Shown here in pieces: positions 22,561 through 57,040 of a stretch of 64,000 bases of DNA. A program made the position numbers and the translations under genes. Numbering within the stretch: the stretch's first letter is position 1; every line of letters begins with the position of its first letter. This DNA comes from Planctomycetota bacterium (GTDB lineage: Bacteria > Planctomycetota > UBA8742 > UBA2392), in assembly GCA_015075515.1 (NCBI GenBank), contig JABTUE010000002.1, positions 661,478 through 725,477 on the forward strand, given 5' to 3'. The notes below the pieces were generated by a model. The model saw only the letters and a program-made list of their open reading frames with translations, was not told the origin of the DNA and searched no databases.

Positions 22561-22676
22561 GCAGATCCATACGGTCCGTGGGGCCGCGCGGGCCCCCCAC
22601 ACAATGCCTCGGTCACATGCTCAGCCGCGAGAAACACGCGGGGGAACGATTGTAGGCCGCGCGCGCTTTGGCGCAA

Positions 22677-23684: not shown

Positions 23685-24776
23685 TCATGGGGCTAGGGGC
23701 GGCGGCGGGGCAAGCCTGACGCGCCTGATGTGCCGGCCCAGCCAGTCGCAGAATACCCTGGCGCCGCCAACCTCCAGGTGCGAACCGTCGGGCGTCCACA
23801 AGTCTGCCAGTTCGGGCTCGTCGGCAAAGTGCACACACCGTCCCGGCAGAGCCGCCGCCAGCACGTCCCAGGTCTGGCGCCGGGGGTACAGGCGTTCTTC
23901 CTTTTCCGCGTACAGGCCGCCCACGGGCAGCCTCAGCCACAACACTGTCACGCCCCGCGCCTCCAGCCGCCGGCACAGGGCGACACTTTCGGCCACAGCC
24001 ACGCGCGCGGCGCGCGCGTCAGGCGGCAACACAAGCGGCGGAGTGAGCGCCGACTGTTCAATGGCCCGGGCATTCCAGTACGCGCGGTCGCCCCGCAGCA
24101 GTGTCCACTCGCGAAAGCCGTTGTCGTGCGCAACCACACGCTGGGTCGGGTCCTGCCCCGGGTCCTCTATGGGCCGGCCCAGCGCGCGCCGCGCCAGCCC
24201 GTGCACGGCCTCGAGCGGACCTTCGCCGGCGCGGGCGATGGCCAGGTTTTTCTTCAGCCCGCGGGCCAGTTCGTCTTCCAGCCACTGGTACGGGCGGGCC
24301 CGTGCCAGCCGGTTCTCCGCCTCCTGCTGCTGCTCCAGCTTGCGTCCGCCAAAGTACACCGACGGCAGCACATCCAGAACCACCACGTCGCCGGCCGAGA
24401 GGTCCGCCTCGAGCGTTTCCAGCATCTTCAGCGAGTTGCCGACCGGGATGCCAAGGTTGTGGGCGCTGTACCCGCCGCCCGCGGCCCGCGCCAGCCAGGG
24501 CGGGTTCACGGCGTTCAGCGTGCGCGAACTGCCCAGCACCAGAATCCGCGGCGGAACGGCGGCCCGTGCCGCCTCCCATTGCCGCACCCAACGGCGCGAA
24601 CCGGGCTCTTCGCTTTTCAGTGGCACCGCGCCGCCGCGCGCCGCGGCCTCCCAGACCGCCGCCAGCACCGCCAGCAGCGCCAGCGCCGCAAGCACCATGC
24701 GCCCGTCCGCCACTGGCGGACAGCGCAGCGCCGCGGCCGGCGCCTCAGAACTGGAAGTAGATGAAGTCTCCGCCAC
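23685..24776 (-). CDS. SGNH/GDSL-fold hydrolase-like protein (AlgJ/AlgX/DltD/PatB-type partner of the adjacent MBOAT). Putative polysaccharide O-acetyltransferase component.
   Basis: N-terminal TM/signal anchor. Block-I-like LVLGSSRT, a GDS variant with Ser in position. Block-V-like TPDGSHLE, giving the DxxH catalytic dyad. It overlaps the 3' end of the MBOAT gene by ~30 bp. The alternative start at MVLAALALLAV (~24698) would remove the overlap. Confidence 0.6.
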   Translation of the reverse strand: MAETSSTSSSEAPAAALRCPPVADGRMVLAALALLAVLAAVWEAAARGGAVPLKSEEPGSRRWVRQWEAARAAVPPRILVLGSSRTLNAVNPPWLARAAGGGYSAHNLGIPVGNSLKMLETLEADLSAGDVVVLDVLPSVYFGGRKLEQQQEAENRLARARPYQWLEDELARGLKKNLAIARAGEGPLEAVHGLARRALGRPIEDPGQDPTQRVVAHDNGFREWTLLRGDRAYWNARAIEQSALTPPLVLPPDARAARVAVAESVALCRRLEARGVTVLWLRLPVGGLYAEKEERLYPRRQTWDVLAAALPGRCVHFADEPELADLWTPDGSHLEVGGARVFCDWLGRHIRRVRLAPPPPLAP

Positions 24777-26154
24777 CGTGCCCCCTGCTGATCACCAGAA
24801 ACAGCATGACCGCCACCACCGCCGCCGTGCCAAAACGACCCAGACGCCGGGCCCAGTCCTCGGGCGTGCGGTCGCCCCAGCACAGATGCACCACAAACAG
24901 CGCCGCGCAGGCACCCGCCGCCAGCGCCAGTTCCAGACGCGAACGTATCGGCCGGTCGGCCCCCTGCCCGGCCAGCGCCAGCACAATCCCCCACAGATCG
25001 GCCAGCGACGCGGCACGAAACAGCAGCCAGCCCGCGCACACGGCCTGAAATGTCAAAAACACCCCGATCACCCGCCACAGCCGCCCGCGCCAGGCCGCCA
25101 CCACCGGCCGCAGCACGCGCTCAAGCCCCAGCAGCATGCCGTGCCAGGCACCCCACAGCACAAACGTCCAGGCCGCGCCGTGCCACAACCCGCCCAGCAG
25201 CATGGTCAGGGCCAGGTTCACACGGGTGCGGATCGGGCCTTTGCGGTTGCCGCCCAGCGGAATGTACAGGTAATCGCGCAGCCATGTGGACAGGCTGATG
25301 TGCCAGCGCCGCCAGAACTCGGAAAACCCCGGCGCGCCGTAGGGCGCCCGGAAGTTGTCCGGCAGCACAAACCCCAGCGCCAGCGCCAGCGCAATCGCCA
25401 TGTCGGAATAGCCGCTGAAGTCGCAGTAAATCTGCCCGGCAAAGGCGTACAGCCCGGCCCAGGCCTGCCAGGTGCCGGGCGCCACACCGGGCGCGAACGC
25501 CTGTTCGGCCACCGGCGCGAACAGCCGGTCGGCCAGAAAGCTCTTTTTGAACAGACCCAGCGAAAACAGCGCAAAGCCCCAGGCCACGTGGCGCGGTTCG
25601 GCCTGGCGCGGGGTTTTAAGCTGGGGCAGAAACGTGGCGGCGCGCACAATCGGCCCGGCGACCAATTGAGGAAAGAAGGTGACGAACAGGGCAAAGTCCA
25701 GCAGGCTGCGCTCGACCTCGATGCGGCGCCGGTAAAGGTCAATGCTGTAGGACAGCGTCTGGAACGTGTAAAAGCTGATGCCCACGGGCAGCACCAGGTT
25801 GAACGGCATCAGTTGCACTTCCAGGCCGGCTGCGCCGGCCAAAGCCACAAAGCTGGCGGCCAGAAAGTCGGCGTACTTGAACGCCGCCAGCACGCCCAGG
25901 TTGCCGCACAGGCTCAGACCCAGCAGCAGCCGGCGCGCGCCAGGCCGCTGCGCGCGGCCAAGCCCCAGCCCGACACAGTAGTCCAGCACCACCGACCCCA
26001 GCAGCAGCAGCACAAACGGCGGGTTCCACGCGGCGTAAAACGCCAGGCTGGCGGCCAGCAGAATCGCCTTGCGCAGCGGCCAGGGCGGGCCCAGCCGGCA
26101 CAGCGCGAACACCAGCGCAAAGAACAGCAGAAAGACCGGCGACGTGAACAGCAT
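24745..26154 (-). CDS. MBOAT-family membrane O-acyltransferase (AlgI/DltB-like).
   Basis: 469 aa, multi-TM. Contains the MBOAT signature FWRRWHISLSTWLRDYLYIPLGGNRKG with the invariant His. Confidence 0.85.
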   Translation of the reverse strand: MLFTSPVFLLFFALVFALCRLGPPWPLRKAILLAASLAFYAAWNPPFVLLLLGSVVLDYCVGLGLGRAQRPGARRLLLGLSLCGNLGVLAAFKYADFLAASFVALAGAAGLEVQLMPFNLVLPVGISFYTFQTLSYSIDLYRRRIEVERSLLDFALFVTFFPQLVAGPIVRAATFLPQLKTPRQAEPRHVAWGFALFSLGLFKKSFLADRLFAPVAEQAFAPGVAPGTWQAWAGLYAFAGQIYCDFSGYSDMAIALALALGFVLPDNFRAPYGAPGFSEFWRRWHISLSTWLRDYLYIPLGGNRKGPIRTRVNLALTMLLGGLWHGAAWTFVLWGAWHGMLLGLERVLRPVVAAWRGRLWRVIGVFLTFQAVCAGWLLFRAASLADLWGIVLALAGQGADRPIRSRLELALAAGACAALFVVHLCWGDRTPEDWARRLGRFGTAAVVAVMLFLVISRGHGGGDFIYFQF

Positions 26155-26166
26155 GAAGGGGCGGCA

Positions 26167-27342
26167 CTATACCTTGCGGGCCGAACCCAGGGCATCCCGC
26201 CAGGCCGACGCCACCGCCGCGGGGGCAAAACGCCGGCTGTATGCCAGCCCGCGCGCCGCCACCGCCGCGCGCCGCGCCGGATCGGCCAGCAGTTCGCCCA
26301 GCGCCGCGGCCAGGGCGCCGGGCTCGGGCTCGCTGCACAGCAGTGCCCCCGCCGCCGCCATTTCAGGGGCCAGCAGGGCGCGCGGACTGGCCAGCACGCA
26401 CACGCCGGCGCTGGCGGCCTCGGCGATCACCATCCCGAAGTTTTCATAGCCCGTGGCCGGGTGCACCAGCACGTCGGCCGACTGCACCAGCGCCCGCGCG
26501 TCCTCGGGGCCCAGCGCCGGCCGCAGCGTAAGCACACCCGCGGCCTCACGCGCCACGCGCGCGGCATAGGCCGGATCTTGGGCCGGGCCGGCGGCCACGG
26601 CCTCGAACTTCACGCCGCGCCGGCGCAGCACATGCAGCGCGCGGCACAGTTCCAGCACGCCCTTGCGCGGGTGCAGCCGGTTCAGGCACACCACGCGCGG
26701 CACGGCCCGGGCCGGCACCGGCGCCGGACGCCAGGCCGGATCCACGGGGTTTGGAATCACCACATGCGGCAGCGCCGCAACGGCGGCGGTGCGGCGGGCG
26801 CGCCGGGCGTCTTCCACGGTGCTGAACACCAGCGTGCAGGCGCGCACGCGGCGGCCCTCGCCGCCCAGCCAGCGCAGGCGCTTGCGCCAGGCGTGGTGCG
26901 CCAGCGCGTCCGGATCCAGCATGCCGTGCGGCGCCAGCCACACCGGAACGCCCGCGGCCCGGGCCGCGTCCACGGCATAGCGCGTGGGCGACAGCCAGAT
27001 CGTGTGCGCCACCACGGCGTCATAACCGTCGGCGTGTTCGGCCAGCCAGCGTTTCAGCGGCGCGCTGGCCCGTGTCAGGCGCGGGGCGGTGGGCGCAAAG
27101 GCCCGCACGCAAACGTCGCCCAGCGGCGGCTCGGGCTCGCCCACACAGGCGACCTCGGCGCCCAGGCCCGCGCCGGTCATGGCCCGCAGCGTGCCCGCCA
27201 CGGCGGTGCGAATGCCGCCCTGGGCGGACTCAAGCCCCGGCACAACGTGCAGAACTTTCAAGCGGCCATGCGCCGCGCGGCCTCGCGGTCCAGCCGCGCA
27301 AAGCCCAGCAGCGCCCCCACACAGGACCAGAACACCAGGCAC
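26167..27342 (-). CDS. Glycosyltransferase family 4 (GT-B).
   Basis: C-terminal EX7E-type motif HPATGYENFGMVIAEAASAGVCVLAS. The N-terminus has the LKVLHVVPGL GT4 start. The true start may be the TTG at 27261, which overlaps the TGA of the upstream gene, rather than ATG 27342. Confidence 0.7.
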   Translation of the reverse strand: MPGVLVLCGGAAGLCAAGPRGRAAHGRLKVLHVVPGLESAQGGIRTAVAGTLRAMTGAGLGAEVACVGEPEPPLGDVCVRAFAPTAPRLTRASAPLKRWLAEHADGYDAVVAHTIWLSPTRYAVDAARAAGVPVWLAPHGMLDPDALAHHAWRKRLRWLGGEGRRVRACTLVFSTVEDARRARRTAAVAALPHVVIPNPVDPAWRPAPVPARAVPRVVCLNRLHPRKGVLELCRALHVLRRRGVKFEAVAAGPAQDPAYAARVAREAAGVLTLRPALGPEDARALVQSADVLVHPATGYENFGMVIAEAASAGVCVLASPRALLAPEMAAAGALLCSEPEPGALAAALGELLADPARRAAVAARGLAYSRRFAPAAVASAWRDALGSARKV

Positions 27343-28805
27343 ATCGTGCCGTTTTCAAGGATCGGAAAGGCCTTCAGCAGATACCAGGCGAATTGCCCGC
27401 ACAGGTACACCCACAGCGCCATGCGCAGCGGCGCGTAACGCATGCGGCGGTTTTCAAGCGCCAGCGACAGTAGCCCCAGAAAGAACCATGCCATCAACAG
27501 CCCGCCGGCAAACAGGCCCAGATCGCCGTAACAATACCGGATCAGCGCCCCGCCCCATTCCACCCATTCGGCGCTGGCCGAAGGCTGGCCGATCAAAGAC
27601 ATCACGCGGCCGCTGGCACCGGCGGTGCCCGTGCCGTGACCGAGCAGCCCGGCCTCGACGGCCAGCGGGGCGCTTACGGCAAAGTCCACGCGCTCGCGCA
27701 CGACTTCGGGGCTCAGCGCCGTCCAGAACGCCGTGGTGCGGGCCGGGCCCATGCTGCCCACCAGCAGCGCGCCGATCAGCAGCCCGGCCAGACCGCCGGC
27801 CAGAAGCCCGCCGCGCCGCCGCGTTTCGGGCACCAGCAGCGGCCCGCGCGGCTCGATGTAGAAACGCGCGAACGCCAGCGGAAACATGGCGATCACGCCG
27901 CACACAATCAGCGACAAACCGGTGCGGATGCCCGACAGGTACGCGCCCGACACGGCGCAATAACCGCACAGCCACAACCAGAGGGTATGCCGATGCGACT
28001 GGCCGGTCTTGATCAGCCCCACCACCAGACAGAACTGCAGCAGGCAGACCAGCGCGTACAGCGTGGGCGTGGCAAAGATGGATTCGTTGTAGCCCAGCAC
28101 TTCGCCGCTTTCGAGCCAGCGTTCGCCAAAGAACGCGCGGTCGGTCAGAAAATCCGGCAGCAGGTCGCGGTAGTCGTTCTGCAACAGACACAACACCAGC
28201 AACGGCACGGCCAGGTACACAATCCGCCGCAGCCAGGCCGTTGTCACTTCGCCGTCACGAACCGACGCATAGACCAGCAGGGCCAGCGGCACGTACACCG
28301 ACCAGGTGCGCAGGCCCGAAACCGCCACCAGCCAGTGCGGCACATCGGGGTTCAACATGCCCACAACCACAAGCCCCAGCCACAACACCACCGGCGCAAC
28401 CACCTTCGCCTTCATGTCCGGCGCCAGCGGCACACGTCCGGCGCGCGGGCCGAAGAAATACGACAGGTACGCCCCGGCGGCCACCAGGTCTTTCATCACC
28501 GGAACCCAGCCCGGCATGCCCGGCAGGGCCTTGCGCACGGAATCTTCCATCAGGGCCAGAAGCAGCAGAAGAAACAGCCCGCGCCGCCAGTCCAGCACGG
28601 CAATCAGCACGCTGCAGGCCAGAACCGCCGCGCCGGCGCCCAGAATCGCGCCGGTGACGGGGTCATCACGGTTCAGCGCCGCGCCAAAACCGGCGCTGAG
28701 CGCCGCCAGCACGCCCATCAGCAGAAATACCCCGCCCATGCGCATCGGCAAAAGCGCCGGGCGCGGGGTGGGGGCTGGGGGCGCGGGATTCAAGATTGGC
28801 GGCAT
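27258..28805 (-). CDS. Polytopic membrane protein of the O-antigen ligase/polymerase (Wzy_C / WaaL-like) family.
   Basis: Start ATG 28805 (MPPILNPAPPAPTP...) or 28745 (MRMGGVFLL...). ~12 predicted TM helices with a large loop. The track ORF 27258..30452 is a chimera: its part above 28805 is the antisense shadow of the plus-strand Wzz gene. Confidence 0.55.
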   Translation of the reverse strand: MPPILNPAPPAPTPRPALLPMRMGGVFLLMGVLAALSAGFGAALNRDDPVTGAILGAGAAVLACSVLIAVLDWRRGLFLLLLLALMEDSVRKALPGMPGWVPVMKDLVAAGAYLSYFFGPRAGRVPLAPDMKAKVVAPVVLWLGLVVVGMLNPDVPHWLVAVSGLRTWSVYVPLALLVYASVRDGEVTTAWLRRIVYLAVPLLVLCLLQNDYRDLLPDFLTDRAFFGERWLESGEVLGYNESIFATPTLYALVCLLQFCLVVGLIKTGQSHRHTLWLWLCGYCAVSGAYLSGIRTGLSLIVCGVIAMFPLAFARFYIEPRGPLLVPETRRRGGLLAGGLAGLLIGALLVGSMGPARTTAFWTALSPEVVRERVDFAVSAPLAVEAGLLGHGTGTAGASGRVMSLIGQPSASAEWVEWGGALIRYCYGDLGLFAGGLLMAWFFLGLLSLALENRRMRYAPLRMALWVYLCGQFAWYLLKAFPILENGTMCLVFWSCVGALLGFARLDREAARRMAA

Positions 28806-28889
28806 GCCGCCCTTGAGTGTAAGGCAATTTGTGCCGATAATAAAAGGTAAGCTCACCCGGCCGCCGCTTCCTCGACGGCAGGAGACATT

Positions 28890-30971
28890 GTGACCGAGCA
28901 CACGGAGTCCGCCGTTGCCGAAGTCCGCCGCTTTGCCGCGGCCGGCGACTACACGTCCGCCCGGCGCCGTCTGGGCGAATACGTGGCCGCGCACCCCGAA
29001 CTCGACCCCCCTACTGCCGCGCGGCTGGACGAACAGCGCCGCACGCTGGAAGTTCTGGAATCGCTCGAAGTTATCCGCCAGTTGCTGCGCGAGGGCAAGA
29101 CCGCCTCGGCCGCCCGGGCCGCCGACGGCATCCGCGAAGCCCTGACCGCGGCCGACTACGCGCGGCTGGGCATTGTCGGTGCGGCCCTGGCGCTTCTGGG
29201 CCGCGCCGGAGACCTGGCCCGCCGCGCGCAATCCGGCGACCGCAGCGCGACCTTGCGCGACGAAATGGGCGCCTTTGTCGAACACCTGGCGATCGAGCTC
29301 AATCACCTTCAGACCGAGCAGGTGGACCGGCGCCTTCAGGCCGTTCTTGAACCCGCCACCGGCGGCGCGACACTGGGTGATCTGCTGTCGCGCCGGCCCT
29401 GGAAATCCAACCTGTTGCCGGCGGTACCCCCTGAACCCGAGCCGGCGCGGGCTTCTCAGGCCTCGGCCTCGGTTCCGGCCACGGCGGCACCCGGCGGTGA
29501 CGGCCCGGTGATCGGCCGGATTCTGATCGCCCAGGAACAGCAGGAACGCGTGGCCCCCGTGGCGCAGCCCCAGCCCGTGACGGGGCGCGGGGACGCCTTT
29601 GACCTGGTGGGCGGCGCGGCGTTGCGCTACTGGCATGTGGTCGCGTTTGTGGCGCTGTTGGGCGCAGCGATCGGCTGGATGGGCGTGCTTTCGACGCCCG
29701 AGACCTGGCAGTCCTCCAGCATTCTGCAGAAGTCGCCCCAGTCCATCCCGCGCGCGCCGTTGACCGGCCGGCCCGAAACCTACGTGTCGTCGTTGCCCAG
29801 CCAGACCGCCCTGCAGCTTGCGGCATTGCCCACGTTTCATGAACGCATCGCGCGCCGGTTGTCGGAAACCGGCTGGGCCGAAGACGGCGCCAAGCCCCGC
29901 ACCATGCCCGTAACCCGCGCTGAGGTCACCGGTTCGCTCAAGCCCACGGTCGAAAACACCGGCGGCGGTTTCTATTCCATCCGCTTTACCGCCACCTCGC
30001 GCGAAGCCGACCGGGCCCAGGCCATTGCCGCCGCCGCCGCCGAAGAATTCCAGAAACTGCACTTTGAACACATCACGCGCGAGGCCGACGCCAACCTGTC
30101 CGAATACGAACAGCGCCAGCGCCAGGTCAACGCGGCGCTGGACAAGATTCACGCCCGGCGGCTGGAAGAATTCGCCGTGGACGCCGCGGCCGTGGGCGTG
30201 ACGATCAAGGACCGGATTGACCAGTTGCTGTCCGAACTGCGCTCGGCGCGCCAGGCCCAGGCCGACCTGCGCGACAACCTGGCCGCGGCGCGCCAGCAGG
30301 CCAACGCCCTGCGCGAAATCGCCGAGCGCATCCCGCCGCTGGAAGAACCCCGGCCCGACCCGAAGCTGGAGGCGCTGCGCAAACTGCAGACCGAAATTGA
30401 AAAGGAACTGTACGACCTGCTGCGGCGGCGCGGCGACTTCGGGCCCGAGCACCCCATGCAGCGCCGTATCCGCGACCTTCAGGAAGACCTGCGCCTGACG
30501 GAAAAGGAAGTGCAGGAACTGGAACGCGCCGCGGCATCCGACCTTGACCGGCGCCGGCCCAACCCCCAGCGCGCCGCCGCCGACAGCCGAGCAGCCGAGG
30601 CCGCCGGCGCGGTGTCACTGGCCGAAATGCGCTACAACGCCGCCAGCGAAAGCATCCCGCGCCTGGAAGGCGAGCTGTCCGGCCTGCGCGAAAAATATCT
30701 GGCCAGTGAATCGCTGCGCCGCGAGGAATCGGCGCTGCTGGCCCAGAAGGAACGCTACGCCGTGATCGTCGAGGAACTGACGGCCGTGCGCGGCTCGGCC
30801 GCGCGTGAATTGACACTGATTGCCCCGGCGGGCAAGGCGCACCTGGTGCCGCGCCAGGAACTGGTGGGCATCGCCGCCGGTCTGGTTGCGGGCCTGGTGA
30901 TCGGCATCGGCGTGGCGGTCATGCTGCTGCGCCGGCGGCAACTGGCCAGGATGGAGGCGGCAGAAGCATGA
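28890..30971 (+). CDS. Polysaccharide co-polymerase (Wzz/GumC/ExoP-like chain-length determinant) without an obvious kinase domain.
   Basis: GTG start at 28890 with AGGAGA upstream. N-terminal TM region (WHVVAFVALLGAAIGWMGVL). Long coiled-coil periplasmic region. C-terminal TM LVGIAAGLVAGLVIGIGVAVMLL followed by RRRQ. 693 aa. Confidence 0.7.
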   Translation: MTEHTESAVAEVRRFAAAGDYTSARRRLGEYVAAHPELDPPTAARLDEQRRTLEVLESLEVIRQLLREGKTASAARAADGIREALTAADYARLGIVGAALALLGRAGDLARRAQSGDRSATLRDEMGAFVEHLAIELNHLQTEQVDRRLQAVLEPATGGATLGDLLSRRPWKSNLLPAVPPEPEPARASQASASVPATAAPGGDGPVIGRILIAQEQQERVAPVAQPQPVTGRGDAFDLVGGAALRYWHVVAFVALLGAAIGWMGVLSTPETWQSSSILQKSPQSIPRAPLTGRPETYVSSLPSQTALQLAALPTFHERIARRLSETGWAEDGAKPRTMPVTRAEVTGSLKPTVENTGGGFYSIRFTATSREADRAQAIAAAAAEEFQKLHFEHITREADANLSEYEQRQRQVNAALDKIHARRLEEFAVDAAAVGVTIKDRIDQLLSELRSARQAQADLRDNLAAARQQANALREIAERIPPLEEPRPDPKLEALRKLQTEIEKELYDLLRRRGDFGPEHPMQRRIRDLQEDLRLTEKEVQELERAAASDLDRRRPNPQRAAADSRAAEAAGAVSLAEMRYNAASESIPRLEGELSGLREKYLASESLRREESALLAQKERYAVIVEELTAVRGSAARELTLIAPAGKAHLVPRQELVGIAAGLVAGLVIGIGVAVMLLRRRQLARMEAAEA

Positions 30972-32688: not shown

Positions 32689-34823
32689 AGCACCGCGTAT
32701 TGCGCGGCCACCGCCGGCGCCGCAAAACGCGCCGCGTTGCGCAGCCCGGCCTCGCGCAGCGATTGCCGCATCACCGGGTCGTCGCGCAGCCGCAGCACCG
32801 CCGCGCGGATCGCCGTTTCGTCGCACGGGTCCACCAGCAGCGCGCCGTCGCCCGCCACCCAGTCCATGGGCGCCAGCGCCGAGGTCACAACCGGAAGACC
32901 ACAGGCCTGGGCCTCGATAATCGGCATGCCGAAACCCTCAAACGTCGAGGCAAACAGCAGCACCCCGGCCTGGTGATAGGCACGGGCCATGGCCGGGCCG
33001 TCCAGGTTCACGCTGTTGCGCCACGGCAGGCCCGCGCGGTCCAGCGCGCCGCGCAGGGCCGTGTCGGGCTCGCCCACCACGTGCAGCGTCAGGCCCGTGC
33101 CCGCCAGCGCCGAAACGCAGCGCGCCAGGTTCTTGTGCGGCAGCGTGCCGACCATAAGGACCGTAAAGTCGTCTGCCGGGGGGCCGGGTGTAAAGTGCGA
33201 CGCCACGCAGTTCGGGATCACGCGCACCCGGGCCGAATCCACACCCGCCAGTTCGTGCAACTGGTCGCGCGTGGCCGCCGACACCGCCGTGACCGCCGCC
33301 ACGCGTGCCGCCGGCGCCAAAAAATACAGCCGGCGCAACAGCGCCCGCCGCAGCCCGCCGTGACGCAACAGCGCCCCGCAGTCATGCACCGTAAGCAGCG
33401 TGCGGCGCGGATCCGTGGCCAGCGCCAGGTAATGCGAATCGCCGGTCACGTGCAGCACGTCGCCGCGCGCGCCGGCCGCCGCAGCCAGATTCAACAGCCG
33501 CCGCAGCACGCCGCCGTTGTCGCAGGGGCTCTGCCGCACCCGCGGCTCAATGTCGCCCGGCAGCTCGCGCCGCAGTTCGGCAAACAGGTTTTCGATGCTG
33601 TGAAAACCCGGCATCGGCCGGCGCACAAGCTGTGTCACCCGTGTGACGCGGCCGGCCCGCGCGCGCTCGGCCGCGCGCAGCACCACCGGCGCGTAGCGCG
33701 CCGCAAAGGCCGCCGTGCCCCAGCGCGCCAGCACCTGTTCGCGCCACAGGCGGCGCTCGTCATCCTGGACCTCCAGCCCGCGCCGCGCCGCCGCCGCCAG
33801 CGCCGCCACATCAGCCACGGGGGCCGTTGCGCCCCACGGGTCGCGGCACCACTCGCGCACGCCGCCGCTGTCATAGGCCGCCACGGCGCAACCACGGGCC
33901 GCGGCCTCGGGCCCGGCCATGCCCCAGGCTTCAAACAGCCGCGACGGCATCAGCAGACAGCGCGATTGCGCCATGCGCCGCCCGAGTTCGGCCTCGTTCA
34001 GCCACGGCGTGAATTCGACGCGATCGGCCACGCCCAGCCGGTGGGCCAGTTCGCGCGCCCGCGGCCCGGCAGGCCCGGTGCCGGCCACGCACAGCCGCGT
34101 GCCGTCCAGACGCGCGCAGACGGCAATCGCGTCCAGCACGCCCTTGGTCTCGATCAACCGGCCGCAGAACAGCAGGCTGCCCTCGGCGGGTTCGGCCGCG
34201 TGCGCGGGTTCGGGCACCGCCGGCGCAATCACCCAGGCGCGGCCCGGCACGCCCACGGTTTCGGCAAACAGGCGCTCCAGTGCCGCGCTGTTGAACACCA
34301 CGCCCCAGGCCAGATCCAGCACCTGCCGCGTCAACACCCCGCGCAGCGGCGCGCGCAGACGCTGGTTGAGGCCAAAGGGCGTGCCGTCGGGCGTGCACAG
34401 ACACCGCCGCGCGGCATCCACGCCAAGACAGGCCACACCCGGCGGCCGGTCACACACCGCGCCGATGGCCGGCAAAGCGCGCCCGCCCGCCGGGCAGGTC
34501 AGTTCCGAGGTGTGGGCAAACAGCAGCATCGGCACCCGGCCCGCCAGCGCGCGCATCAGCGGCAGCGGCGCGCAGCCGTGAAACTCGACCACATCGCAGC
34601 CTGCGGCCACAACGTCGGCGCTGCGGGCCACGGCCGCGGCGTCGGGCCGGCGCAACGGGTGCAGCGATTCGCCCAGTTCCAGCCCGCGCGCGTCCCAGGC
34701 TTTAACCGTCGCGCCCAGTTCGCGCTGGGTTTGCATCAGGCGGCGCACGTAGATTTCCGTGCCGCCCACCGGCTCCAGCCGCGGCGTGATCACCCCCAGG
34801 CGCAGGCCGCCAAGCACGCTCAT
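32667..34823 (-). CDS. Tandem (double) GT4 glycosyltransferase.
   Basis: 718 aa with two GT-B halves, each with an EX7E-like motif (SRLFEAWGMAGPEAAARGCAV and STFEGFGMPIIEAQACGLPVV). Its 3' end overlaps the 3' end of the convergent uxs by 22 bp. Confidence 0.75.
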   Translation of the reverse strand: MSVLGGLRLGVITPRLEPVGGTEIYVRRLMQTQRELGATVKAWDARGLELGESLHPLRRPDAAAVARSADVVAAGCDVVEFHGCAPLPLMRALAGRVPMLLFAHTSELTCPAGGRALPAIGAVCDRPPGVACLGVDAARRCLCTPDGTPFGLNQRLRAPLRGVLTRQVLDLAWGVVFNSAALERLFAETVGVPGRAWVIAPAVPEPAHAAEPAEGSLLFCGRLIETKGVLDAIAVCARLDGTRLCVAGTGPAGPRARELAHRLGVADRVEFTPWLNEAELGRRMAQSRCLLMPSRLFEAWGMAGPEAAARGCAVAAYDSGGVREWCRDPWGATAPVADVAALAAAARRGLEVQDDERRLWREQVLARWGTAAFAARYAPVVLRAAERARAGRVTRVTQLVRRPMPGFHSIENLFAELRRELPGDIEPRVRQSPCDNGGVLRRLLNLAAAAGARGDVLHVTGDSHYLALATDPRRTLLTVHDCGALLRHGGLRRALLRRLYFLAPAARVAAVTAVSAATRDQLHELAGVDSARVRVIPNCVASHFTPGPPADDFTVLMVGTLPHKNLARCVSALAGTGLTLHVVGEPDTALRGALDRAGLPWRNSVNLDGPAMARAYHQAGVLLFASTFEGFGMPIIEAQACGLPVVTSALAPMDWVAGDGALLVDPCDETAIRAAVLRLRDDPVMRQSLREAGLRNAARFAAPAVAAQYAVLYRELAP

Positions 34824-35965
34824 GCCCGGCCCTCCAGCAGCAGCCCGCGCCAGGCCGCATCGGCCCGCACCAGATCAAAGTGCTCGCGCGCGTGCCGCCA
34901 GGCCGCATGGCTCATGGCCTCCAGCCGCGCGCGGTCGGCAGACAGCGCCGACACATGCCCGGCCATCGCCTCAACGACGGCGTCTTCAGGCATCGCTTCG
35001 ACCAGCAGCGCGGCGCCTGGCGGCAGCAGTGCCAGCCCGCCCACGCGCGTGCACAACGGTACGGCGCCGCGAGCCATTGCCTCCATGACCGCCACCGGAA
35101 AGCCCTCGCGTTCGGATGTCAGCACCAGCACATGCGCCGCGGCGTACTCGGCGGCCAGAACGGCCGGGTCGGTCACCAGCCCGGCAAAGCGACAATGCCG
35201 CGCGTCGGCCTCGGGCATCGCCGCGCGCACGTCGCCCAGGCACGTCACCGCGGCATCCACACCCATTGCCGCCAGCCGCGCGGCCAGACGCCCCACCAGA
35301 TGCACGCGCTTTTCCGGTGTGGCGCGGCCGGCATACAGCACGCGCAGCGTGCCCGCGGGCTTTGCCGGCGGCGTATCGGGCACCTCGACGGCGTTGGCAA
35401 TGACCGTAACGCGACCGGCCAGATCATCCAGCCCGCGCGCGCGGTACAGGGCGGTCAGTTCGTCGCGCAGCAGCGGCGTGATCACCACCCGCGCGGCCAG
35501 ACGCCGCGCATGAGGCAGGCTGTAGTGTTCAAAGTTCACGCCGAAGTTGTGGAGCAGGTCCACGCAGCGCACGCCGTTCAGGTGCGGCAGCATGTCGTAA
35601 AAGAAATGGCTGAAGGCACCGAACACCGTGCGCACCCCGCCGCGCCGGATGCGCCCGGCCTGCAGCCCGGCCTGGAAGTACGCGCCCGGCCGGCGGCGCA
35701 GCCGGCCGCCCAGCATCACGACCGGCGCCACGGCCTGATAACGCGGCAGCAGCCCGCCATCGCGGGGCGTTTCCGTGAACCAGACCTCGGGACAGGCCTG
35801 GGCCACGGCGCGCACGATCTCGGCGTGCACGCGCTCGGCCCCGCCGACGTCGGGTGTGGCAAACACGCACACCAGCGGGGCCCGCACCGGCGGCACAAGC
35901 AGCGCGCACAGGCGCCCCAGGGCACCCAGCACCGCGCGCAAAGTCACCACAACCAGGCGCTTCAC
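34820..35965 (-). CDS. GT4 glycosyltransferase.
   Basis: 381 aa. SEREGFPVAVMEAMARGAVPL motif. ATGA coupling to both neighbours. Confidence 0.75.
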   Translation of the reverse strand: MKRLVVVTLRAVLGALGRLCALLVPPVRAPLVCVFATPDVGGAERVHAEIVRAVAQACPEVWFTETPRDGGLLPRYQAVAPVVMLGGRLRRRPGAYFQAGLQAGRIRRGGVRTVFGAFSHFFYDMLPHLNGVRCVDLLHNFGVNFEHYSLPHARRLAARVVITPLLRDELTALYRARGLDDLAGRVTVIANAVEVPDTPPAKPAGTLRVLYAGRATPEKRVHLVGRLAARLAAMGVDAAVTCLGDVRAAMPEADARHCRFAGLVTDPAVLAAEYAAAHVLVLTSEREGFPVAVMEAMARGAVPLCTRVGGLALLPPGAALLVEAMPEDAVVEAMAGHVSALSADRARLEAMSHAAWRHAREHFDLVRADAAWRGLLLEGRA

Positions 35966-37149
35966 AGGCCCATCTCCGTGCGCACGACTTCGGCCGTGCG
36001 ATCCCAGTCAAAGGCGTGCAGCCGCGACGCGAGATCGTCGGGGTCGAATTTCGGAAACGTCGCCGGGTTGGCCAGCGCACGGCCCCATTCATCGGCGTTG
36101 TGCGCCGCAAACGTCAGGTTCGGCCAGGCCAGCCGCTTCAGTTCGCGCAGCGGGCTGCACAGCACGGGCTTGCCGCAGGTGCTGAACTCGACCACGTTCA
36201 GGGGCGTGGCGTCTTCGGTTACCGGGCGCGGCACATAGGGGTGAACGCCGGCGTCACAGGCGTGAAGATACGCCGCGACTTCGTCGGGCTTTACCGGCCC
36301 TACGCAGTGCACGCCCTCGGCGGGCCCAAGCCGTCGCGGGCCGGCCACGCGGTCGCTGCCGGGCCCGACAACCAGCAACGCCAGTTCGGGCCGCGCCGCC
36401 CGCGCCACCAGCCAGGCATCCAGCAGCATTTCCATGCCGTCAAAGGCCATGCGATGGTTGCCGATGAAACCCACCACAAAACGCCCCTCAAGACCAAGGC
36501 GCGCGCGCACCCGCGCGCCCTGTTCGGGCGGGCATTGCAGCAGGGCCGCGCGAGCCGCGCCGTTGGGCGCATAGGCGGCCCGGCGGCCGGCCAGCTCTTC
36601 GGCCTGTTCGCACAAACTGTGGCTGCAGGCGCTCAGGGTATCGGCGCGGCGCATGGCGTCCTGCAGAAACCGGCGCCGCGAACGCGCCACCACGCCGCCG
36701 CGCCATTCGTCGTGAAAGTTGTCAATCACATCAAAGTGAACGCGATACTTCCTGCGTCCGGGCGCGGGCGGCAGAAAGAAAAACGGGTTGCCGTGAAACA
36801 CGTGCGTGCAGCCGAAACGTTCCACCAGCGCGGCAATGCGGCGGTTGTTGCCCCAGGCCGCCAGGCGGTTGAACAGCGGCCCCGTGGCCGGCCACACCGG
36901 CATGGTGACGCGCGTGACCTTGCCATCTTCCAGCACGCGCGTGCCGCCGAACGCCAGCCTGCGCCGCATGGCCAGCCGCGCGCCCAGGCTGTTGTCGGAG
37001 GTGTTGACGGCTTCGCTGCGGTCCAGCGCGAACACCGGCACGTGCTCGGCCACGCGCCGGGCGATTTCGACCTCGCGCACGCGCAGATCCGGCGCAAACA
37101 GCATGCGCCCGATCCACAGCACCGCCGGTTTTCGGCCCTGGGGCGGCAA
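35962..37149 (-). CDS. Glycosyltransferase (GT4-like).
   Basis: 395 aa. C-terminal PYVPRPVTEDATPLNVVEFSTCGKPVLCS resembles EX7E. ATGA coupling downstream. Confidence 0.6.
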   Translation of the reverse strand: MPPQGRKPAVLWIGRMLFAPDLRVREVEIARRVAEHVPVFALDRSEAVNTSDNSLGARLAMRRRLAFGGTRVLEDGKVTRVTMPVWPATGPLFNRLAAWGNNRRIAALVERFGCTHVFHGNPFFFLPPAPGRRKYRVHFDVIDNFHDEWRGGVVARSRRRFLQDAMRRADTLSACSHSLCEQAEELAGRRAAYAPNGAARAALLQCPPEQGARVRARLGLEGRFVVGFIGNHRMAFDGMEMLLDAWLVARAARPELALLVVGPGSDRVAGPRRLGPAEGVHCVGPVKPDEVAAYLHACDAGVHPYVPRPVTEDATPLNVVEFSTCGKPVLCSPLRELKRLAWPNLTFAAHNADEWGRALANPATFPKFDPDDLASRLHAFDWDRTAEVVRTEMGL

Positions 37150-37155
37150 TCCGGC

Positions 37156-39123
37156 CTAATCCTTTCTGGCGCGCGCGCCGCGCCACAGTTTCAGCAGCGG
37201 CCCGGGAACCAGCGCGCGCACCCCGGCCCGGCACGCCGCCCAGGGCCGCAACGGCGCCAGCCGCCACGCCGCACCCAGGCTGGCCAGCACCATGCCCTGG
37301 TTCTTGTACGCGCCCGCCAGACGCACAAGCTGGTCGGCGCGCGCCGCGCTGTCGGGCCTGCCCACGTGCGTCTGCTGCACGCGCATGGTCATCTCCAGAA
37401 CCTGCGCCAGCCGGCTTTGCGTCAGCGTACCGGCGTGCTCGGTCACCGTATACAGCACCCGCGCCAGCCGCCGCAGCCGCGTCAGACGCGACAGACGCAG
37501 CCACAGCTCGTAGTCTTCGGCCAGGTGGTACTGCGGGTTCACGCCCCCGGCCTGCTGCCACACCGAACGCCGGATCAGAAAGCACAGCCCGATCACGTTG
37601 CGTGACGCCAGTTCGTGCAGCGGCCCGGTCTGCACCACACGGCGCGCGCCAGACGCGTCGGCCAGTTCGTAATCGGCAAAAACCACGCCGGCCTCGGGGT
37701 CCAGCACCAGCTCGCGCGCCAGCGCGGCAATTGCGCCGGGCGCGAACAGGTCATCGTCGGCCTTCCACATCACCAGTTCGCCGTCGGCCACGGCCATGCC
37801 GGCATTGATCGCACCACTCAGGCCGGCGTTGGGCTGGTGGATCACGCGCACGCGATGGTCGGACTCAAAGGGCTTCAGGCGCCGTGCCGTGTCGTCGGTG
37901 CTGCCGTCGTTGACCACAATCAGTTCCAGATCCGGGTAGTCCTGCCCCAGCGTGTTGCGCACGGCGGCTTCGACCCAGTCCGCGCGGTTGTACGTGGGCA
38001 TGACGACGCTGACCTTGGGCAGCGGCGCGCCGGTAGCCAGCGCGTAGACGCCGGCCTCGCGCCGGCCGATCGTGGCCACGTCGTAGGCTTCGCTGGCGGC
38101 GCGGGCCGGCGCCGCCAGCCGCGCGCGCAGCGCGGGGTCGGCAATCGCGCCGATCGCGCGCGCGATGTCGGGCACGCTCAGCGGATCGAAGAGCAGACCG
38201 TCCCACTGGTCGGTAACAACCTCGTTCATCGGCGCGCGGTTGGATGTCAACACCGGCGTGCCGCAGGCCAGAGCCTCGACAATCGCCGTGCCGAAGCCCT
38301 CAAACAGGCTGGGCAGGACCAGCGCGTCGGCCCAGCGGTACCACGGCGGCAGCTCGACGTTAGGCACGGCATCAAGGTGCAACGCGAACCCGAGACGAGA
38401 CCAGTCGCGCGCGCTGCGCCCGATGTGCACCAGCCGCAGTTGCGGGTGAACCGCGCGCGCGCTTTGGCAGGCTTCCACCAACCGGTCCAGGTTCTTCTGG
38501 GGCACATCGCGGGCCACGCACAACAGGCACGGCGAGCCTTTTGGCCCCGCGGCCGTCGGGCCGTCAGGCGAAAACAGCGCGCGGTCTACACGGTTGTGCA
38601 CCGTAACCACACAGGCCGGATCGGCACCCTGCCCGATGGCCGCGCGGGCAACTTCGTCGCTGACGGCGATCAGCCGGCGCGCCCGGCGCAGCACCGCCGA
38701 GCACAACCCGATCACATTGTGCAGGCTGATCACCACCGGAACGCCCAGCGCGGCGGCAAGCTCGAGGCCCAGCCAGCCGCTCCAGCGCGCGCCGTAGGCC
38801 CGCACGCAGCAAGGCCCGAACTCGCGCGCCTGCGCCAGCCACGAAGGGGGCACACCGGGCCAGCCCGCGGCGATTTCGTCGCCCATGGGCGCGGCAAAGT
38901 CCGCCGCCTGTACCGTAGCCAGCCAGGCCTCCAGCGCGGGCTCGGGCGGCAGGGCCATGACGGGAATGCCGGGCCAGTCTCCGCCCCGGCCCCAGTCCAT
39001 GAGCGTAAACCCGTCAAAACAGCCCGCCGGGTTGTAGTACGCGGTCTTGACGGCCGCGTCGGCGCCCGCGGCGCAAAGCTCGCGGGGCAGTTCTTCGGTG
39101 ATCACCAGAAGGCGTCGGCTCAT
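37156..39123 (-). CDS. Bifunctional glycosyltransferase: N-terminal GT4 and C-terminal GT2.
   Basis: GT4: LPSLFEGFGTAIVEALACGTPVLTS. GT2: VSVVMPTYNRADWVEAAVRNTLGQDYPDLELIVVNDGSTDDT with DXD-like D/E residues downstream. 655 aa. Confidence 0.8.
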   Translation of the reverse strand: MSRRLLVITEELPRELCAAGADAAVKTAYYNPAGCFDGFTLMDWGRGGDWPGIPVMALPPEPALEAWLATVQAADFAAPMGDEIAAGWPGVPPSWLAQAREFGPCCVRAYGARWSGWLGLELAAALGVPVVISLHNVIGLCSAVLRRARRLIAVSDEVARAAIGQGADPACVVTVHNRVDRALFSPDGPTAAGPKGSPCLLCVARDVPQKNLDRLVEACQSARAVHPQLRLVHIGRSARDWSRLGFALHLDAVPNVELPPWYRWADALVLPSLFEGFGTAIVEALACGTPVLTSNRAPMNEVVTDQWDGLLFDPLSVPDIARAIGAIADPALRARLAAPARAASEAYDVATIGRREAGVYALATGAPLPKVSVVMPTYNRADWVEAAVRNTLGQDYPDLELIVVNDGSTDDTARRLKPFESDHRVRVIHQPNAGLSGAINAGMAVADGELVMWKADDDLFAPGAIAALARELVLDPEAGVVFADYELADASGARRVVQTGPLHELASRNVIGLCFLIRRSVWQQAGGVNPQYHLAEDYELWLRLSRLTRLRRLARVLYTVTEHAGTLTQSRLAQVLEMTMRVQQTHVGRPDSAARADQLVRLAGAYKNQGMVLASLGAAWRLAPLRPWAACRAGVRALVPGPLLKLWRGARARKD

Positions 39124-40382
39124 GTTACCCGCGCCGCCGGCGCCGCCACCTGCCAGCGCTGGCGCACGTCAATCAGTCCGCGCGCGTCACCCCACGCGGG
39201 CCGCACGCACTCCAGGCGCGCCGCGCCGTCACGCGCGTACAGGGGGTTCTGGTGCGCGCCGTCAAACACGTAGACCTTGCAGCGATAGCGGCCCGCCGGC
39301 AGATGCAGGGCTTCCACCTCCACTTCAACCGCGCCCGTGCCCTCAAGCGTGCGGCCGGCAAACGCGCCGCCGCTGTGCAGATGCACCAGATAGCCCCGCA
39401 TCGCCAGACCAAAACGCGGGTCATCGTGAAACAGCGACAACGCAAACATCGGGCCGTTCAGCGGTGCCCTGGCCTCGAAATGCAGGCGCACCGTCGCGCC
39501 CTGGCCGGGTGTTAAGGTTTCCAGTTCGGCACCGTCAGGGCCAAGCCACTGCACGCGCGTGATCTCGACCAGCGGGCGGCCCTGGACATCTGCGACAAAG
39601 CCGACCTCGTCGGCACGGGCGCCCGAACCGCCGCTGTCAGCCAGATAGCGTGCGACCACGTCGGCGGGTTCACCCAGCGCCGCGGCCCGGCCCTGGTTCA
39701 GGTACAGAACGCGATCGCAGGGCCGGATGTTGTGCATTTCGTGGCTGACCAGCACCACCGCCCCGCCGCCGCGACGCCGCGAGGCGATCCAGTCATAGCA
39801 CTTCACCTGAAACGCCGCGTCGCCCACGGCCAGAACTTCGTCCACCACCAGCACGTCGGGTTCGGCGTGGGCCGCAATCGCAAAGGCCAGCCGCGCGTAC
39901 ATGCCGCTGGAGTAATCCTTGACCGGCATGTCCATGAACTCGGCAAGTCCGGCAAACTCGACAATCGAATCGTACTTGCGCCGCACCTCGGCCCGGGACA
40001 GTCCCAGAATCACGCCATTGATGGCCACGTTTTCGCGCCCGGACAGGTACGGGTGAAACCCGGCACCCAGTTCAATCAGCCCGCCGGCACGCCCGCGCAC
40101 GGCCACAACTCCGGCGTCCGGGCGCAGAATGCGCGTAAGCAGCTTGAGAACCGTGCTTTTGCCCGAACCGTTGGGGCCGATGATGCCCAGCATCTCGCCC
40201 GGCCGCACCTGAAACGAAACGTCGCGCAGGGCAAAGAACTCGCCCGGCCGCAGGCCCTCGGCATCACGCCCGGCGGCCCACCGGCGCCAGGCACCGCTGA
40301 CCAGTTCCGCCAGCGTGCGCGCGCGACCGGTGCGCGCAAAGCGCTTGGACACGCCGGTGACCTCGACGCAGGGGGCGCTCAT
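39120..40382 (-). CDS. wzt: ABC transporter ATP-binding protein Wzt/TagH/KpsT type with a C-terminal ~170-aa extension (Wzt_C-like glycan-terminus-binding domain).
   Basis: Start ATG 40382 in an ATGA overlap with wzm. Walker A GPNGSGKST. ABC signature YSSGMYARLAFA. Walker B VLVVDE. The ~170 residues after the NBD (…VQWLGPDGAELETLTPGQGATVRLHFEA...RYRCKVYVFDG…) form a beta-rich extra domain. The upstream in-frame extension to 41114 is the antisense of wzm. Confidence 0.85.
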   Translation of the reverse strand: MSAPCVEVTGVSKRFARTGRARTLAELVSGAWRRWAAGRDAEGLRPGEFFALRDVSFQVRPGEMLGIIGPNGSGKSTVLKLLTRILRPDAGVVAVRGRAGGLIELGAGFHPYLSGRENVAINGVILGLSRAEVRRKYDSIVEFAGLAEFMDMPVKDYSSGMYARLAFAIAAHAEPDVLVVDEVLAVGDAAFQVKCYDWIASRRRGGGAVVLVSHEMHNIRPCDRVLYLNQGRAAALGEPADVVARYLADSGGSGARADEVGFVADVQGRPLVEITRVQWLGPDGAELETLTPGQGATVRLHFEARAPLNGPMFALSLFHDDPRFGLAMRGYLVHLHSGGAFAGRTLEGTGAVEVEVEALHLPAGRYRCKVYVFDGAHQNPLYARDGAARLECVRPAWGDARGLIDVRQRWQVAAPAARVT

Positions 40383-41164
40383 GCCAGCTCCCCAAAGCGT
40401 GGTTCCGCGCGCCGGAACCACAGCCAGCCCGACACCAGCACCAGCGCGCTGATCGCGGCGGACGCGCCGAATTCGGGCGCCAGGGTAAACTGCCCGCCGA
40501 CAATCAGCCCGCGGTAGGCGTCCAGAATCGGCGTCATCGGGTTCAGCCACGCCAGCAGCGCCAGCGAACCCTGGCGTGGAATCGGCCAGATCACTGAACT
40601 GGCGAACATCCACACCAGCACCACAAGCTGCAGAATGAACTGCACGTCGCGGTACAGGAGGTTTGCCGCCGACACCCACAGCGCCACGCCGCAGGCCAGC
40701 ACAAGCTGCACGCCGATCACCACCGGCACCAGCAGCAGCCCGGCCCCCGGCTTGACCCCGAACCAGGCCATCAACCCCGCGACCAGAACACCCGCCACGG
40801 CAAAATCCACCAGCGCCGAAAGTACCACGGAAAGCGGCAGCACCTCGCGCCGGAAGTAAACCTTGGTGACCAGGTTGCGGTTGTCGCTCAGGCTGCGCGC
40901 GGCGCCGGTCAGCACCGCGGCGTGGAACTGCCACGGCACCAGCCCGATGTACACAAACACCGGGTAAGGAACGGGCGCGGTGTCCAGCCGCGCCACGCGC
41001 GTGAACACCAGCGTGAACACCAGCATCAGGCACAGCGGCTGGGCCACGGCCCAGCCAAGACCCAGCAGCGTGTGCTTGTAGCGCACGCGCACCTCGCGCA
41101 TGCCCAGCATCCACGCCAGTTCGCGGCTGCGGAAAATTTCGCCAAGGTCGGCAAGCAGGGCCAT
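40379..41164 (-). CDS. wzm: ABC-2 type polysaccharide exporter permease (Wzm/KpsM/TagG).
   Basis: Start ATG 41164 (MALLADLGEIFRSRELAWMLGMREVRVRYKHTLLGLGWAV..., the canonical ABC-2 N-terminus). Six TM helices. 262 aa. Confidence 0.85.
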   Translation of the reverse strand: MALLADLGEIFRSRELAWMLGMREVRVRYKHTLLGLGWAVAQPLCLMLVFTLVFTRVARLDTAPVPYPVFVYIGLVPWQFHAAVLTGAARSLSDNRNLVTKVYFRREVLPLSVVLSALVDFAVAGVLVAGLMAWFGVKPGAGLLLVPVVIGVQLVLACGVALWVSAANLLYRDVQFILQLVVLVWMFASSVIWPIPRQGSLALLAWLNPMTPILDAYRGLIVGGQFTLAPEFGASAAISALVLVSGWLWFRRAEPRFGELA

Positions 41165-51783: not shown

Positions 51784-51944
51784 AAAATTGTCAAGCGGTT
51801 CGCTGACAACAACATACTGCTGGTTGCAGAAGCCAGGGCTTGCGCCCAGAAAATGCGTGATCGCGTACGGCATGTCCTGGAGTGTTGTAACATTCCAACC
51901 ACCCCTGAAGAATCAGAGATTGTTGAGGTCAAGCCGATCGGATG

Positions 51945-54890
<2,946 letters not shown>

Positions 54891-55510: not shown

Positions 55511-57040
<1,530 letters not shown>

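Follow-up and report, generated by a model that had tools for sequence, protein, structure and literature searches.

A 64-kb stretch of DNA from an uncultured Planctomycetota bacterium, referred to here as the window, carries a polysaccharide island in which the genes of an ATP-binding cassette (ABC) exporter, Wzm and Wzt, lie beside genes for a polysaccharide co-polymerase (PCP), an outer membrane polysaccharide export protein (OPX) and a Wzy_C-like polytopic membrane protein. The first-pass annotation had described positions 23685 to 41164 as one locus mixing the hallmarks of ABC-transporter-dependent and Wzy-dependent assembly. The genes it listed (Wzm, Wzt with an extra domain, Wzz/PCP, Wza/OPX, a Wzy_C-like protein and uxs) are indeed present where it placed them or close by. 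The real unit exceeds this interval, extending on one side to a giant gene (41217-49547) and on the other to at least 22680, possibly 20443. It consists of two cassettes that are conserved independently of each other and can lie far apart, and the conserved partner of wzm-wzt is a giant surface protein. The mixed look of the locus arises mostly from the adjacency of these two cassettes.

Since the G+C content across the island region is 64-73%, raw lists of open reading frames are full of antisense artefacts, and the island genes were chosen by codon-position G+C. The island resolves into three tightly packed transcription units (TU1 to TU3). TU1 runs on the minus strand from 49547 to 32670 and comprises the giant gene, wzm, wzt and genes for a GT4-GT2 glycosyltransferase, two GT4 glycosyltransferases and a double GT4 protein, with a start/stop overlap at almost every junction. 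TU2, on the plus strand (28890-32685), encodes the PCP-like protein, the OPX and a UDP-xylose synthase (UXS) of the SDR family. TU3, on the minus strand from 28805 to about 20443, encodes E, D, an MBOAT protein, an SGNH-like protein, protein A and a TPR/C39 protein, where E denotes the 515-aa Wzy_C-like polytopic protein, D its coupled GT4 and A a 311-aa protein. TU2 and TU3 diverge from an 84-bp spacer, and TU1 and TU2 are convergent. Scans for promoters and terminators were uninformative, with counts near the shuffle expectation. We refer to giant-wzm-wzt-glycosyltransferases (TU1) as cassette 1 and to uxs-opx-pcp divergent from E-D (TU2 and TU3) as cassette 2. By Pfam, the five glycosyltransferase proteins hold seven GT4 domains and one GT2 domain. 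The genes are as follows.

41217..49547, minus strand: giant surface protein, about 2776 aa from MRKLWLL, first gene of TU1 (Pfam domains, signal peptide).
40379..41164, minus strand: Wzm, ABC-2 permease (PF01061 ABC2_membrane, 4.5e-17; six hydrophobic segments).
39120..40382, minus strand: Wzt, nucleotide-binding domain (NBD) and predicted C-terminal domain of carbohydrate-binding type (PF00005 ABC_tran, 1e-19; sub-threshold Wzt_C).
37156..39123, minus strand: bifunctional glycosyltransferase, GT4 (N-terminal) and GT2 (C-terminal) (Pfam GT2 3.2e-28, GT4 1.2e-23).
35962..37149, minus strand: GT4 glycosyltransferase (Pfam).
34820..35965, minus strand: GT4 glycosyltransferase (Pfam).
32667..34823, minus strand: double-GT4 glycosyltransferase, last gene of TU1 (two stretches, each Glycos_transf_1 and Glyco_transf_4).
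31741..32688, plus strand: predicted UDP-glucuronate decarboxylase (UDP-xylose synthase, UXS; match to human UXS1).
30968..31741, plus strand: short lipoprotein OPX, 257 aa (Poly_export 2.7e-17, plus SLBB).
28890..30971, plus strand: PCP-like protein without kinase domain (Wzz in orthologues; transmembrane segments).
27258..28805, minus strand: E, putative divergent Wzy_C-superfamily polytopic membrane protein, first gene of TU3 (fold and remote homologues).
26167..27261, minus strand: D, GT4 glycosyltransferase, start/stop-coupled to E (Pfam).
24745..26154, minus strand: MBOAT, membrane O-acyltransferase of AlgI/DltB type (PF03062, 4.8e-31).
23685..24776, minus strand: SGNH-like membrane-anchored MBOAT partner, 363 aa (GSSR and DGSHL motifs).
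22677..23612, minus strand: protein A, 311 aa, cytoplasmic, true start at 23612 (conservation; no Pfam or NCBIfam match).
20440..22602, minus strand: protein with TPR and Peptidase_C39_2-like domains, membership in the system uncertain (Pfam).

The comparison set comprised about 25 related Planctomycetota loci (numbered with the prefix L), and synteny on the side of E was surveyed by tblastn at 20 loci. Homologues of E were found at 21 loci, all in metagenome-assembled genomes (MAGs) of Planctomycetota, and a locus identical to that of the window is also present in the NCBI MAG GCA_048499555.1 and in several read-archive assemblies. In the survey, D lay immediately downstream of E at all 20 loci, PCP and OPX genes were divergent from E at 19 and UXS was near E at 18. 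Protein A was located downstream of the E module at no fewer than 11 of the 20 loci, the MBOAT/SGNH pair near E at about five, and the TPR/C39 gene near E, downstream of protein A, at five or more. The glycosyltransferase genes of TU1 adjoin the E module only in L009, L010 and L011. Likewise, wzm/wzt together with glycosyltransferase genes adjoin it only in the window, L009 and L010/L034 and, arranged differently, in L030, while 14 or more of the module loci lack wzm/wzt at distances of up to 10 kb.

One relative, GCA_016722065.1 (L034/L010), keeps the whole arrangement of the window, including a giant gene of 4236 aa. In GCA_020638675.1, the series giant-wzm-wzt-GT4GT2-epimerase-double-GT4 (L031) is found about 270 kb from the E module (L017) on the same contig. 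This separate conservation speaks against the premise of a single locus. The same detached giant-wzm-wzt cassette is present on an ENA contig (L033), and L032 shows a variant that also has a NusG paralogue and methyltransferases. In L030/L008 (GCA_020848275.1), genes for NusG, Wzm, Wzt, a methyltransferase, glycosyltransferases, GT9, GT2 and PMT_2 lead into E-D on one strand, with no pcp-opx-uxs and no giant gene. A gene of 418-422 aa without Pfam match lies downstream of the detached cassette in L031 and L033; its product is a helical, secreted protein rather than an overlooked Wzy_C protein or flippase. Given that E is paired with pcp-opx throughout the clade, that the cassettes are separated by 270 kb in one genome and that TU1 and TU2 converge, independence is favoured, and we tentatively read the island, at somewhat less than an even chance, as two pathways that are adjacent but independent, their genes for initiation and flipping being unlinked.

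Cassette 1 resembles the O-polysaccharide pathways in which Wzt bears a carbohydrate-binding domain (CBD), as described for Escherichia coli O9a, Klebsiella pneumoniae O12 and Aquifex aeolicus. As in these pathways, the wzm stop overlaps the wzt start, the NBD and the beta-sandwich at the C-terminus can be aligned with A. aeolicus Wzt, genes for multi-domain GT4 enzymes come directly after wzt, and there is no Wzx and no linked phosphoglycosyl transferase (PGT), which in E. coli is encoded by the unlinked wecA. The NBD is closest to that of A. aeolicus Wzt (6e-58), and nearly all Wzt homologues carry Wzt_C (PF14524). Unlike in the known pathways, however, Wzt_C on the Wzt of the window scored 25.9 bits (E 1.1e-5) and thus remained under the Pfam gathering score of 30.4. 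Structure prediction nevertheless bears out the C-terminal extra domain noticed in the first-pass annotation: the full-length AlphaFold model (pLDDT 88.6) contains a beta-sandwich at about residues 260-392 and can be aligned over about 415 columns with the whole of A. aeolicus Wzt, CBD included (E ~1e-37). Judged from this model, the domain is of carbohydrate-binding type, with a putative role in ligand recognition.

Further differences from these pathways are that a giant surface protein is encoded at the head of the operon, that the operon stands beside PCP/OPX genes, and that the window is without a WbdD-like kinase/methyltransferase or a recognisable Kdo-transferase terminator. The GT4-GT2 gene directly after wzt occupies the slot of WbdD in E. 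coli O9a. Its GT2 domain, which matches the GT2 domain of chondroitin synthase in the Protein Data Bank (PDB; 9e-23), is a possible chain terminator. Chains can also be terminated without a WbdD-type enzyme, glycosyltransferases being known in this role, and methyltransferases stand beside wzt or wzm in the relatives L030 and L032. The earlier suggestion that, with WbdD missing, the cap, if any, may be novel or encoded elsewhere is thereby weakened. The double-GT4 protein has two GT4 modules in a WbdA-like architecture; specific assignments of the glycosyltransferases (to WbdA, HpsP and others) were rejected, as every match was far under the family cutoff. In two relatives, a NusG paralogue is located immediately upstream of wzm (L030 5191-5730, L032 7761-8309). 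It may be a specialised anti-terminator for a long glycan operon, and none was seen in the window.

The giant protein at the head of cassette 1 contains, according to Pfam, two LamG domains, Ig-like repeats of HYDIN/ASH/CARDB type and several Kelch beta-propellers. With its signal peptide, 11.5% Thr and 0.3% Lys, it is secreted or lipoprotein-like. Its gene is separated from wzm by 55 nt, within which no terminator-like site occurs, and this intergenic spacer was not conserved when compared across relatives. Four other genomes have orthologues (L031, L032, L033, L034) upstream of wzm-wzt, three of them immediately before it and one at a distance of about 3 kb; these orthologues are colinear, share 37-50% identity and have a common C-terminal end (...WFWGD). 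The link between the exported glycan and the neighbouring giant protein, which had been proposed from the window alone, gains support from this synteny. A search from the Kelch end of the protein returned generic Kelch proteins and fragments only.

A surface-protein gene adjoining wzm/wzt and glycosyltransferase genes is a trait of slg-type clusters, and as synteny it is found here. By analogy, the ABC cassette could export a capped glycan that E, acting as an O-oligosaccharyltransferase, would transfer onto the giant protein, possibly assisted by the TPR protein. The slg clusters of Geobacillus stearothermophilus and Paenibacillus alvei likewise combine Wzm/Wzt, glycosyltransferases, a capped glycan, a Wzy_C-domain O-oligosaccharyltransferase (WsaB/WsfB), a TPR element and a neighbouring surface-protein gene (PMC2943079), and a section of PMC5088730 describes a heavily O-glycosylated planctomycete S-layer protein. 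The conservation of a secreted, Thr-rich giant protein upstream of wzm-wzt would fit such a route. However, in L031, L032 and L033 the giant-wzm-wzt unit does not include the E gene, which is instead syntenic with pcp/opx, so that E belongs to the other, separable cassette, and L030 combines the ABC cassette and E in the absence of a giant gene. The slg clusters also differ in encoding their own WbaP-like PGT (WsaP), in having no PCP/OPX and in belonging to monoderm Firmicutes. Moreover, E is without the conserved histidine of PglL/WaaL-type enzymes discussed below. We regard protein O-glycosylation of this type as quite unlikely.

Two observations concern the giant gene itself. Compared with its counterpart in L001 (488-9166), a MAG locus whose other genes are 100% identical, it aligns at 94% and 89% in overlapping alignments; the L001 protein is called at 2892 aa, and among themselves the Ig-like repeats, each about 116 aa long, align at 50-73%. 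This difference suggests variation of the repeat number between strains or an assembly collapse. An exosortase-associated exopolysaccharide (EPS) locus of PEP-CTERM type was considered and rejected, since the giant protein ends in ...DTWFWGD without a PEP-CTERM tail; the PEP-CTERM-related NCBIfam matches were all far under their cutoffs.

The central protein of cassette 2, E, has no Pfam match even at E values up to 10 and none in NCBIfam or among PDB sequences, and its 23 close homologues are all unannotated. Its predicted structure (pLDDT 81.6, pTM 0.85) matched FtsW (1.6e-4), WaaL (7TPG, 9.3e-4) and RodA (8e-3) by Foldseek, the TM score of 0.42-0.51 against WaaL 7TPG being no better than that against FtsW. 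A profile search starting from E yielded 798 remote relatives, and 16 of the 46 that were sampled match Pfam Wzy_C (best 2.9e-11); no solved WaaL, Wzy or SEDS protein was found by sequence with a profile of these remote homologues. The model fold and the Wzy_C matches among the remote relatives place E in the Wzy_C/SEDS-like superfamily as a divergent member. The Wzy_C label of the first-pass annotation is thus upheld by fold and remote homologues, as its PCP label is by orthologues, although neither protein has a direct Pfam match.

Ligases of WaaL/PglL type carry a conserved histidine in a periplasmic loop, within the motif H[NSQ]x9Gxx[GTY]. The sequence of E has no match to this motif, and of its four histidines only H157, in an early N-proximal loop, is conserved, which weakens the ligase role that the first-pass annotation had put forward for it. 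We consider that E would more probably be a polymerase than a ligase because of the missing WaaL motif, FtsW as the top fold match and the pairing with pcp/opx at 19 of 20 loci. The same features bear on an ordinary lipopolysaccharide (LPS) pathway, in which TU1 would direct an ABC-dependent O-polysaccharide, E would be the WaaL-type ligase, D and UXS would serve a conserved core acceptor and pcp-opx would stem from an unrelated capsule or EPS system. This would account for a conserved "ligase plus core glycosyltransferase" beside variable O-polysaccharide-like glycosyltransferase cassettes across species, and it agrees with the GT9 gene (heptosyltransferase family) adjoining the E-D pair in L030/L008 and with the fold match of E to WaaL 7TPG. 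The lack of the WaaL histidine motif argues against it, the tight divergent pairing with pcp-opx across the clade would be left unexplained, and the E family is confined to about 21 species-level genomes at recognisable identity. Such an LPS pathway therefore seems improbable.

The PCP itself matches no Pfam, NCBIfam or PDB sequence, whereas nine of its 16 orthologues match Pfam Wzz (best 2.5e-5). It consists of a conserved N-terminal cytoplasmic domain of 245 aa, a first transmembrane segment, a coiled-coil periplasmic region and a second transmembrane segment, with no tyrosine-kinase domain. Typical PCPs have a short N-terminus and, if they carry a kinase, have it at the C-terminus. The N-terminal domain (residues 1-245, window 28890-29630) matches no family and contains many residues that are invariant across the 16 orthologues, for example in the stretches T52-L-E-V-L-E57 and T161-L-x-D-L-L-x-R-x-P-W171. 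The OPX matches PslD and Wza and is of the short kind; class-3-like short OPXs are given as the commonest type in a passage of PMC9603273. The claim that the SDR gene is uxs was confirmed: it matches human UXS1 (4GLL, 2B69) at E 3e-95 over residues 3-309, the next family following at 2e-34, and by this sequence evidence its product is a genuine UDP-xylose synthase.

A Wzy_C-superfamily protein, a kinase-less Wzz PCP and a short OPX are also found together in Wzx/Wzy-dependent EPS systems such as Xanthomonas GumB/GumC/GumE, Pseudomonas Psl and Myxococcus EPS/BPS/MASC. In contrast to these, the module described here has no Wzx or PGT in the cluster in any of 20 species, its PCP carries a large N-terminal cytoplasmic domain, no beta-barrel partner of the OPX was identified and E is too divergent for Pfam. 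The group 2/3 capsules (KpsMT-KpsE-KpsD) share with the window an ABC-2 exporter beside PCP and OPX genes. They differ in their KpsC/KpsS beta-Kdo transferases, which are absent here, while the ATPase of the window is Wzt/TagH-like with a CBD rather than KpsT, and E is present. A Kps-type capsule was rejected, as no window gene carries PF05159 (Capsule_synth), and the absence of KpsC/KpsS excludes this family.

The acylation genes of TU3 resemble the two-component O-acylation systems AlgI/AlgJ/AlgX and PatA/PatB, in that an MBOAT precedes a membrane-anchored partner bearing GSSR and DGSH motifs. The MBOAT matched the DltB model at 1e-47, under the cutoff of this model. The SGNH-like protein combines an N-terminal anchor with GSSR and DGSHL, as in SGNH acyltransferase partners. 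Unlike in the known systems, it has no Pfam match, nor one in NCBIfam or PDB sequences, and the pair occurs in only about 5/20 of the related modules. Protein A is the most conserved gene product of the neighbourhood (57-86% identity compared with 43-78% for E) and has no match in Pfam, NCBIfam or PDB sequences. The TPR protein contains an internal Peptidase_C39_2/PA2778-like cysteine peptidase domain and has no signal peptide. A few kb downstream of the TPR/C39 gene, L017 carries a fused VipA/VipB-like type VI secretion sheath gene (18366-20168).

The reported lack of a flippase, an initiating transferase and a WbdD-like terminator holds for the entire window. No gene of the window carries a PGT (Bac_transf, Glycos_transf_4), Wzx (Polysacc_synt/MOP, MATE-like) or KpsC/S domain, a six-frame motif scan of the window for PGT signatures was negative, and the genes between 20 and 50 kb encode no kinase or methyltransferase domain, hence no WbdD-like terminator. 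The possibility raised at the time, that a Wzx and a PGT lie just outside the window, was not borne out, as no PGT, Wzx or KpsC/S-type gene, and no WbdD-like terminator, was found within about 6 kb beyond each edge. Around the E module of 20 species, the flanks showed no PGT motif and, as further polytopic proteins, only PMT_2-type GT-C enzymes, NrfD and TauE. The PMT_2/ArnT-like GT-C gene, which is absent from the window, is located next to uxs or just upstream of E in about seven relatives (L014, L018, L022, L025, L026 and L028 at ~4.1-6.0 kb; L008 at 8343-10004) and gives a hint that glycans are decorated in the periplasm with sugars donated by polyprenyl phosphate.

Wzx is dispensable in ABC-dependent pathways, whose PGT (WecA) is usually unlinked, so that the missing PGT does not disqualify a pathway of this type. 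PCP and OPX proteins serve ABC-dependent capsules according to passages in PMC9601211 and PMC9603273. For these reasons the "mixing" is less of an anomaly than had been thought. Genes for EPS in cyanobacteria have likewise been reported outside the canonical schemes (PMC4594306).

In the reading as two independent pathways, cassette 1 would start with an unlinked PGT that primes undecaprenyl phosphate. As their domains suggest, the GT4-GT2, the two GT4 enzymes and the double-GT4 protein would build the whole chain at the cytoplasmic face, the CBD of Wzt would recognise the chain end, and the finished lipid-linked polymer would cross the inner membrane via Wzm/Wzt. The giant protein, tied to this cassette by synteny, may be the acceptor or a binder of the exported glycan. 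Cassette 2 would be a module that the whole clade uses for a secreted or capsular polysaccharide containing xylose: UXS would supply UDP-xylose, D would help to assemble the units, E would polymerise the lipid-linked units in the periplasm, and the kinase-less PCP and the short OPX lipoprotein would carry outward the polymer, which the MBOAT and its SGNH-like partner would O-acylate in the periplasm. For a flippase and a PGT, cassette 2 would depend on genes located elsewhere, as in all 20 relatives examined.

Several observations weigh against this reading. No Wzx-like or PGT gene occurs from about -6 kb to +70 kb around the window, or within 10 kb of the E module in any of the 20 species, and a Wzx/Wzy pathway therefore needs completion by unlinked genes. 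The sole translocase ever found beside the E module is Wzm/Wzt, in four species and two architectures, and the order wzm-wzt...E-D on one strand in L030 argues for functional coupling. An ABC-exported polymer linked to undecaprenyl pyrophosphate (Und-PP) needs a periplasmic transferase, for which E is the only candidate in sight. Furthermore, the modelled fold and the remote homology of E cannot separate a polymerase from a ligase.

These points lead to a hybrid pathway, in which Wzm/Wzt would replace Wzx and deliver a finished or block-wise Und-PP-glycan, E would transfer or join it in the periplasm, MBOAT/SGNH would acylate it and PCP-OPX would pass it through the outer membrane, with only the PGT unlinked. 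It is the most economical explanation for the missing parts, requiring neither a Wzx nor an extra ligase; the ABC cassette adjoins the module in two independent arrangements (that of the window, L009 and L034, and that of L030), no Wzx or PGT is near the module in the 20 species, and PCP and OPX are also used by the ABC-dependent capsule systems cited above. On the other hand, it has to accommodate the distance of 270 kb between the cassettes in one genome, the 14 or more module loci without nearby wzm/wzt, the convergence of TU1 and TU2 as separate units, and the giant protein, not the E module, as the operon partner kept with wzm/wzt. No case is known in which a Wzt with a CBD supplies a Wzy_C enzyme together with PCP/OPX. 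We consider the hybrid pathway, although the main rival of the preferred reading, unlikely. A single pathway of an undescribed kind, in which a CBD-gated Wzm/Wzt replaces Wzx and hands the glycan to E for attachment to the giant protein or passage into the PCP-OPX conduit, is judged unlikely. Taken together, the cooperative variants (hybrid export, slg-like glycosylation of the giant protein and LPS-type ligation) come close to an even chance, and two independent pathways with unlinked initiation and flipping genes are the interpretation that we tentatively prefer.

Beyond the island, the right flank consists of RecJ and then a complete rRNA operon (16S, two spacer tRNAs, 23S, 5S) on the minus strand at 51677-57045. 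NCBI MAG contigs break at this operon, and the window therefore spans two of them. In MAG contigs of the same organism, the 6 kb or so left of the window edge contain fatty-acid oxidation genes, PFOR and a TPR/transglutaminase protein, and a similar distance to the right contains NicO, TetR, PaaA-like and peroxidase genes. Inside the window, positions 5544-8999 (minus strand) encode an 1151-aa protein in which three parts are fused, namely an MFS transporter, an acyltransferase of PlsC type and an acyl-activating enzyme of the AMP-binding kind; it resembles an LplT/Aas lysophospholipid recycling system in one polypeptide. An 1127-aa protein encoded at 16091-19471 (minus strand) has a probable signal anchor and no Pfam or NCBIfam match, and the relatives examined show no synteny for it.

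The glycoconjugates on the surface of Planctomycetota are very poorly known. Genuinely new here are the conserved operon that couples a giant LamG/Ig/Kelch protein to a Wzm/Wzt glycan cassette with a predicted CBD, and a clade-specific Wzy_C-like family unrecognised by Pfam-A and NCBIfam. The members of this family are always coupled to a GT4, almost always accompanied by a PCP with an unusual domain, a short OPX and UXS, and never linked to a flippase or PGT. If E attaches the glycan to the giant protein, it would be the first case in a diderm planctomycete of protein O-glycosylation that is ABC-dependent and coupled to a Wzt CBD. If the two cassettes cooperate, a hybrid category between ABC-dependent and Wzy-dependent assembly would be needed, and the protein-glycosylation route would be testable; if they do not, the island cautions that neighbouring hallmark genes need not share one pathway.

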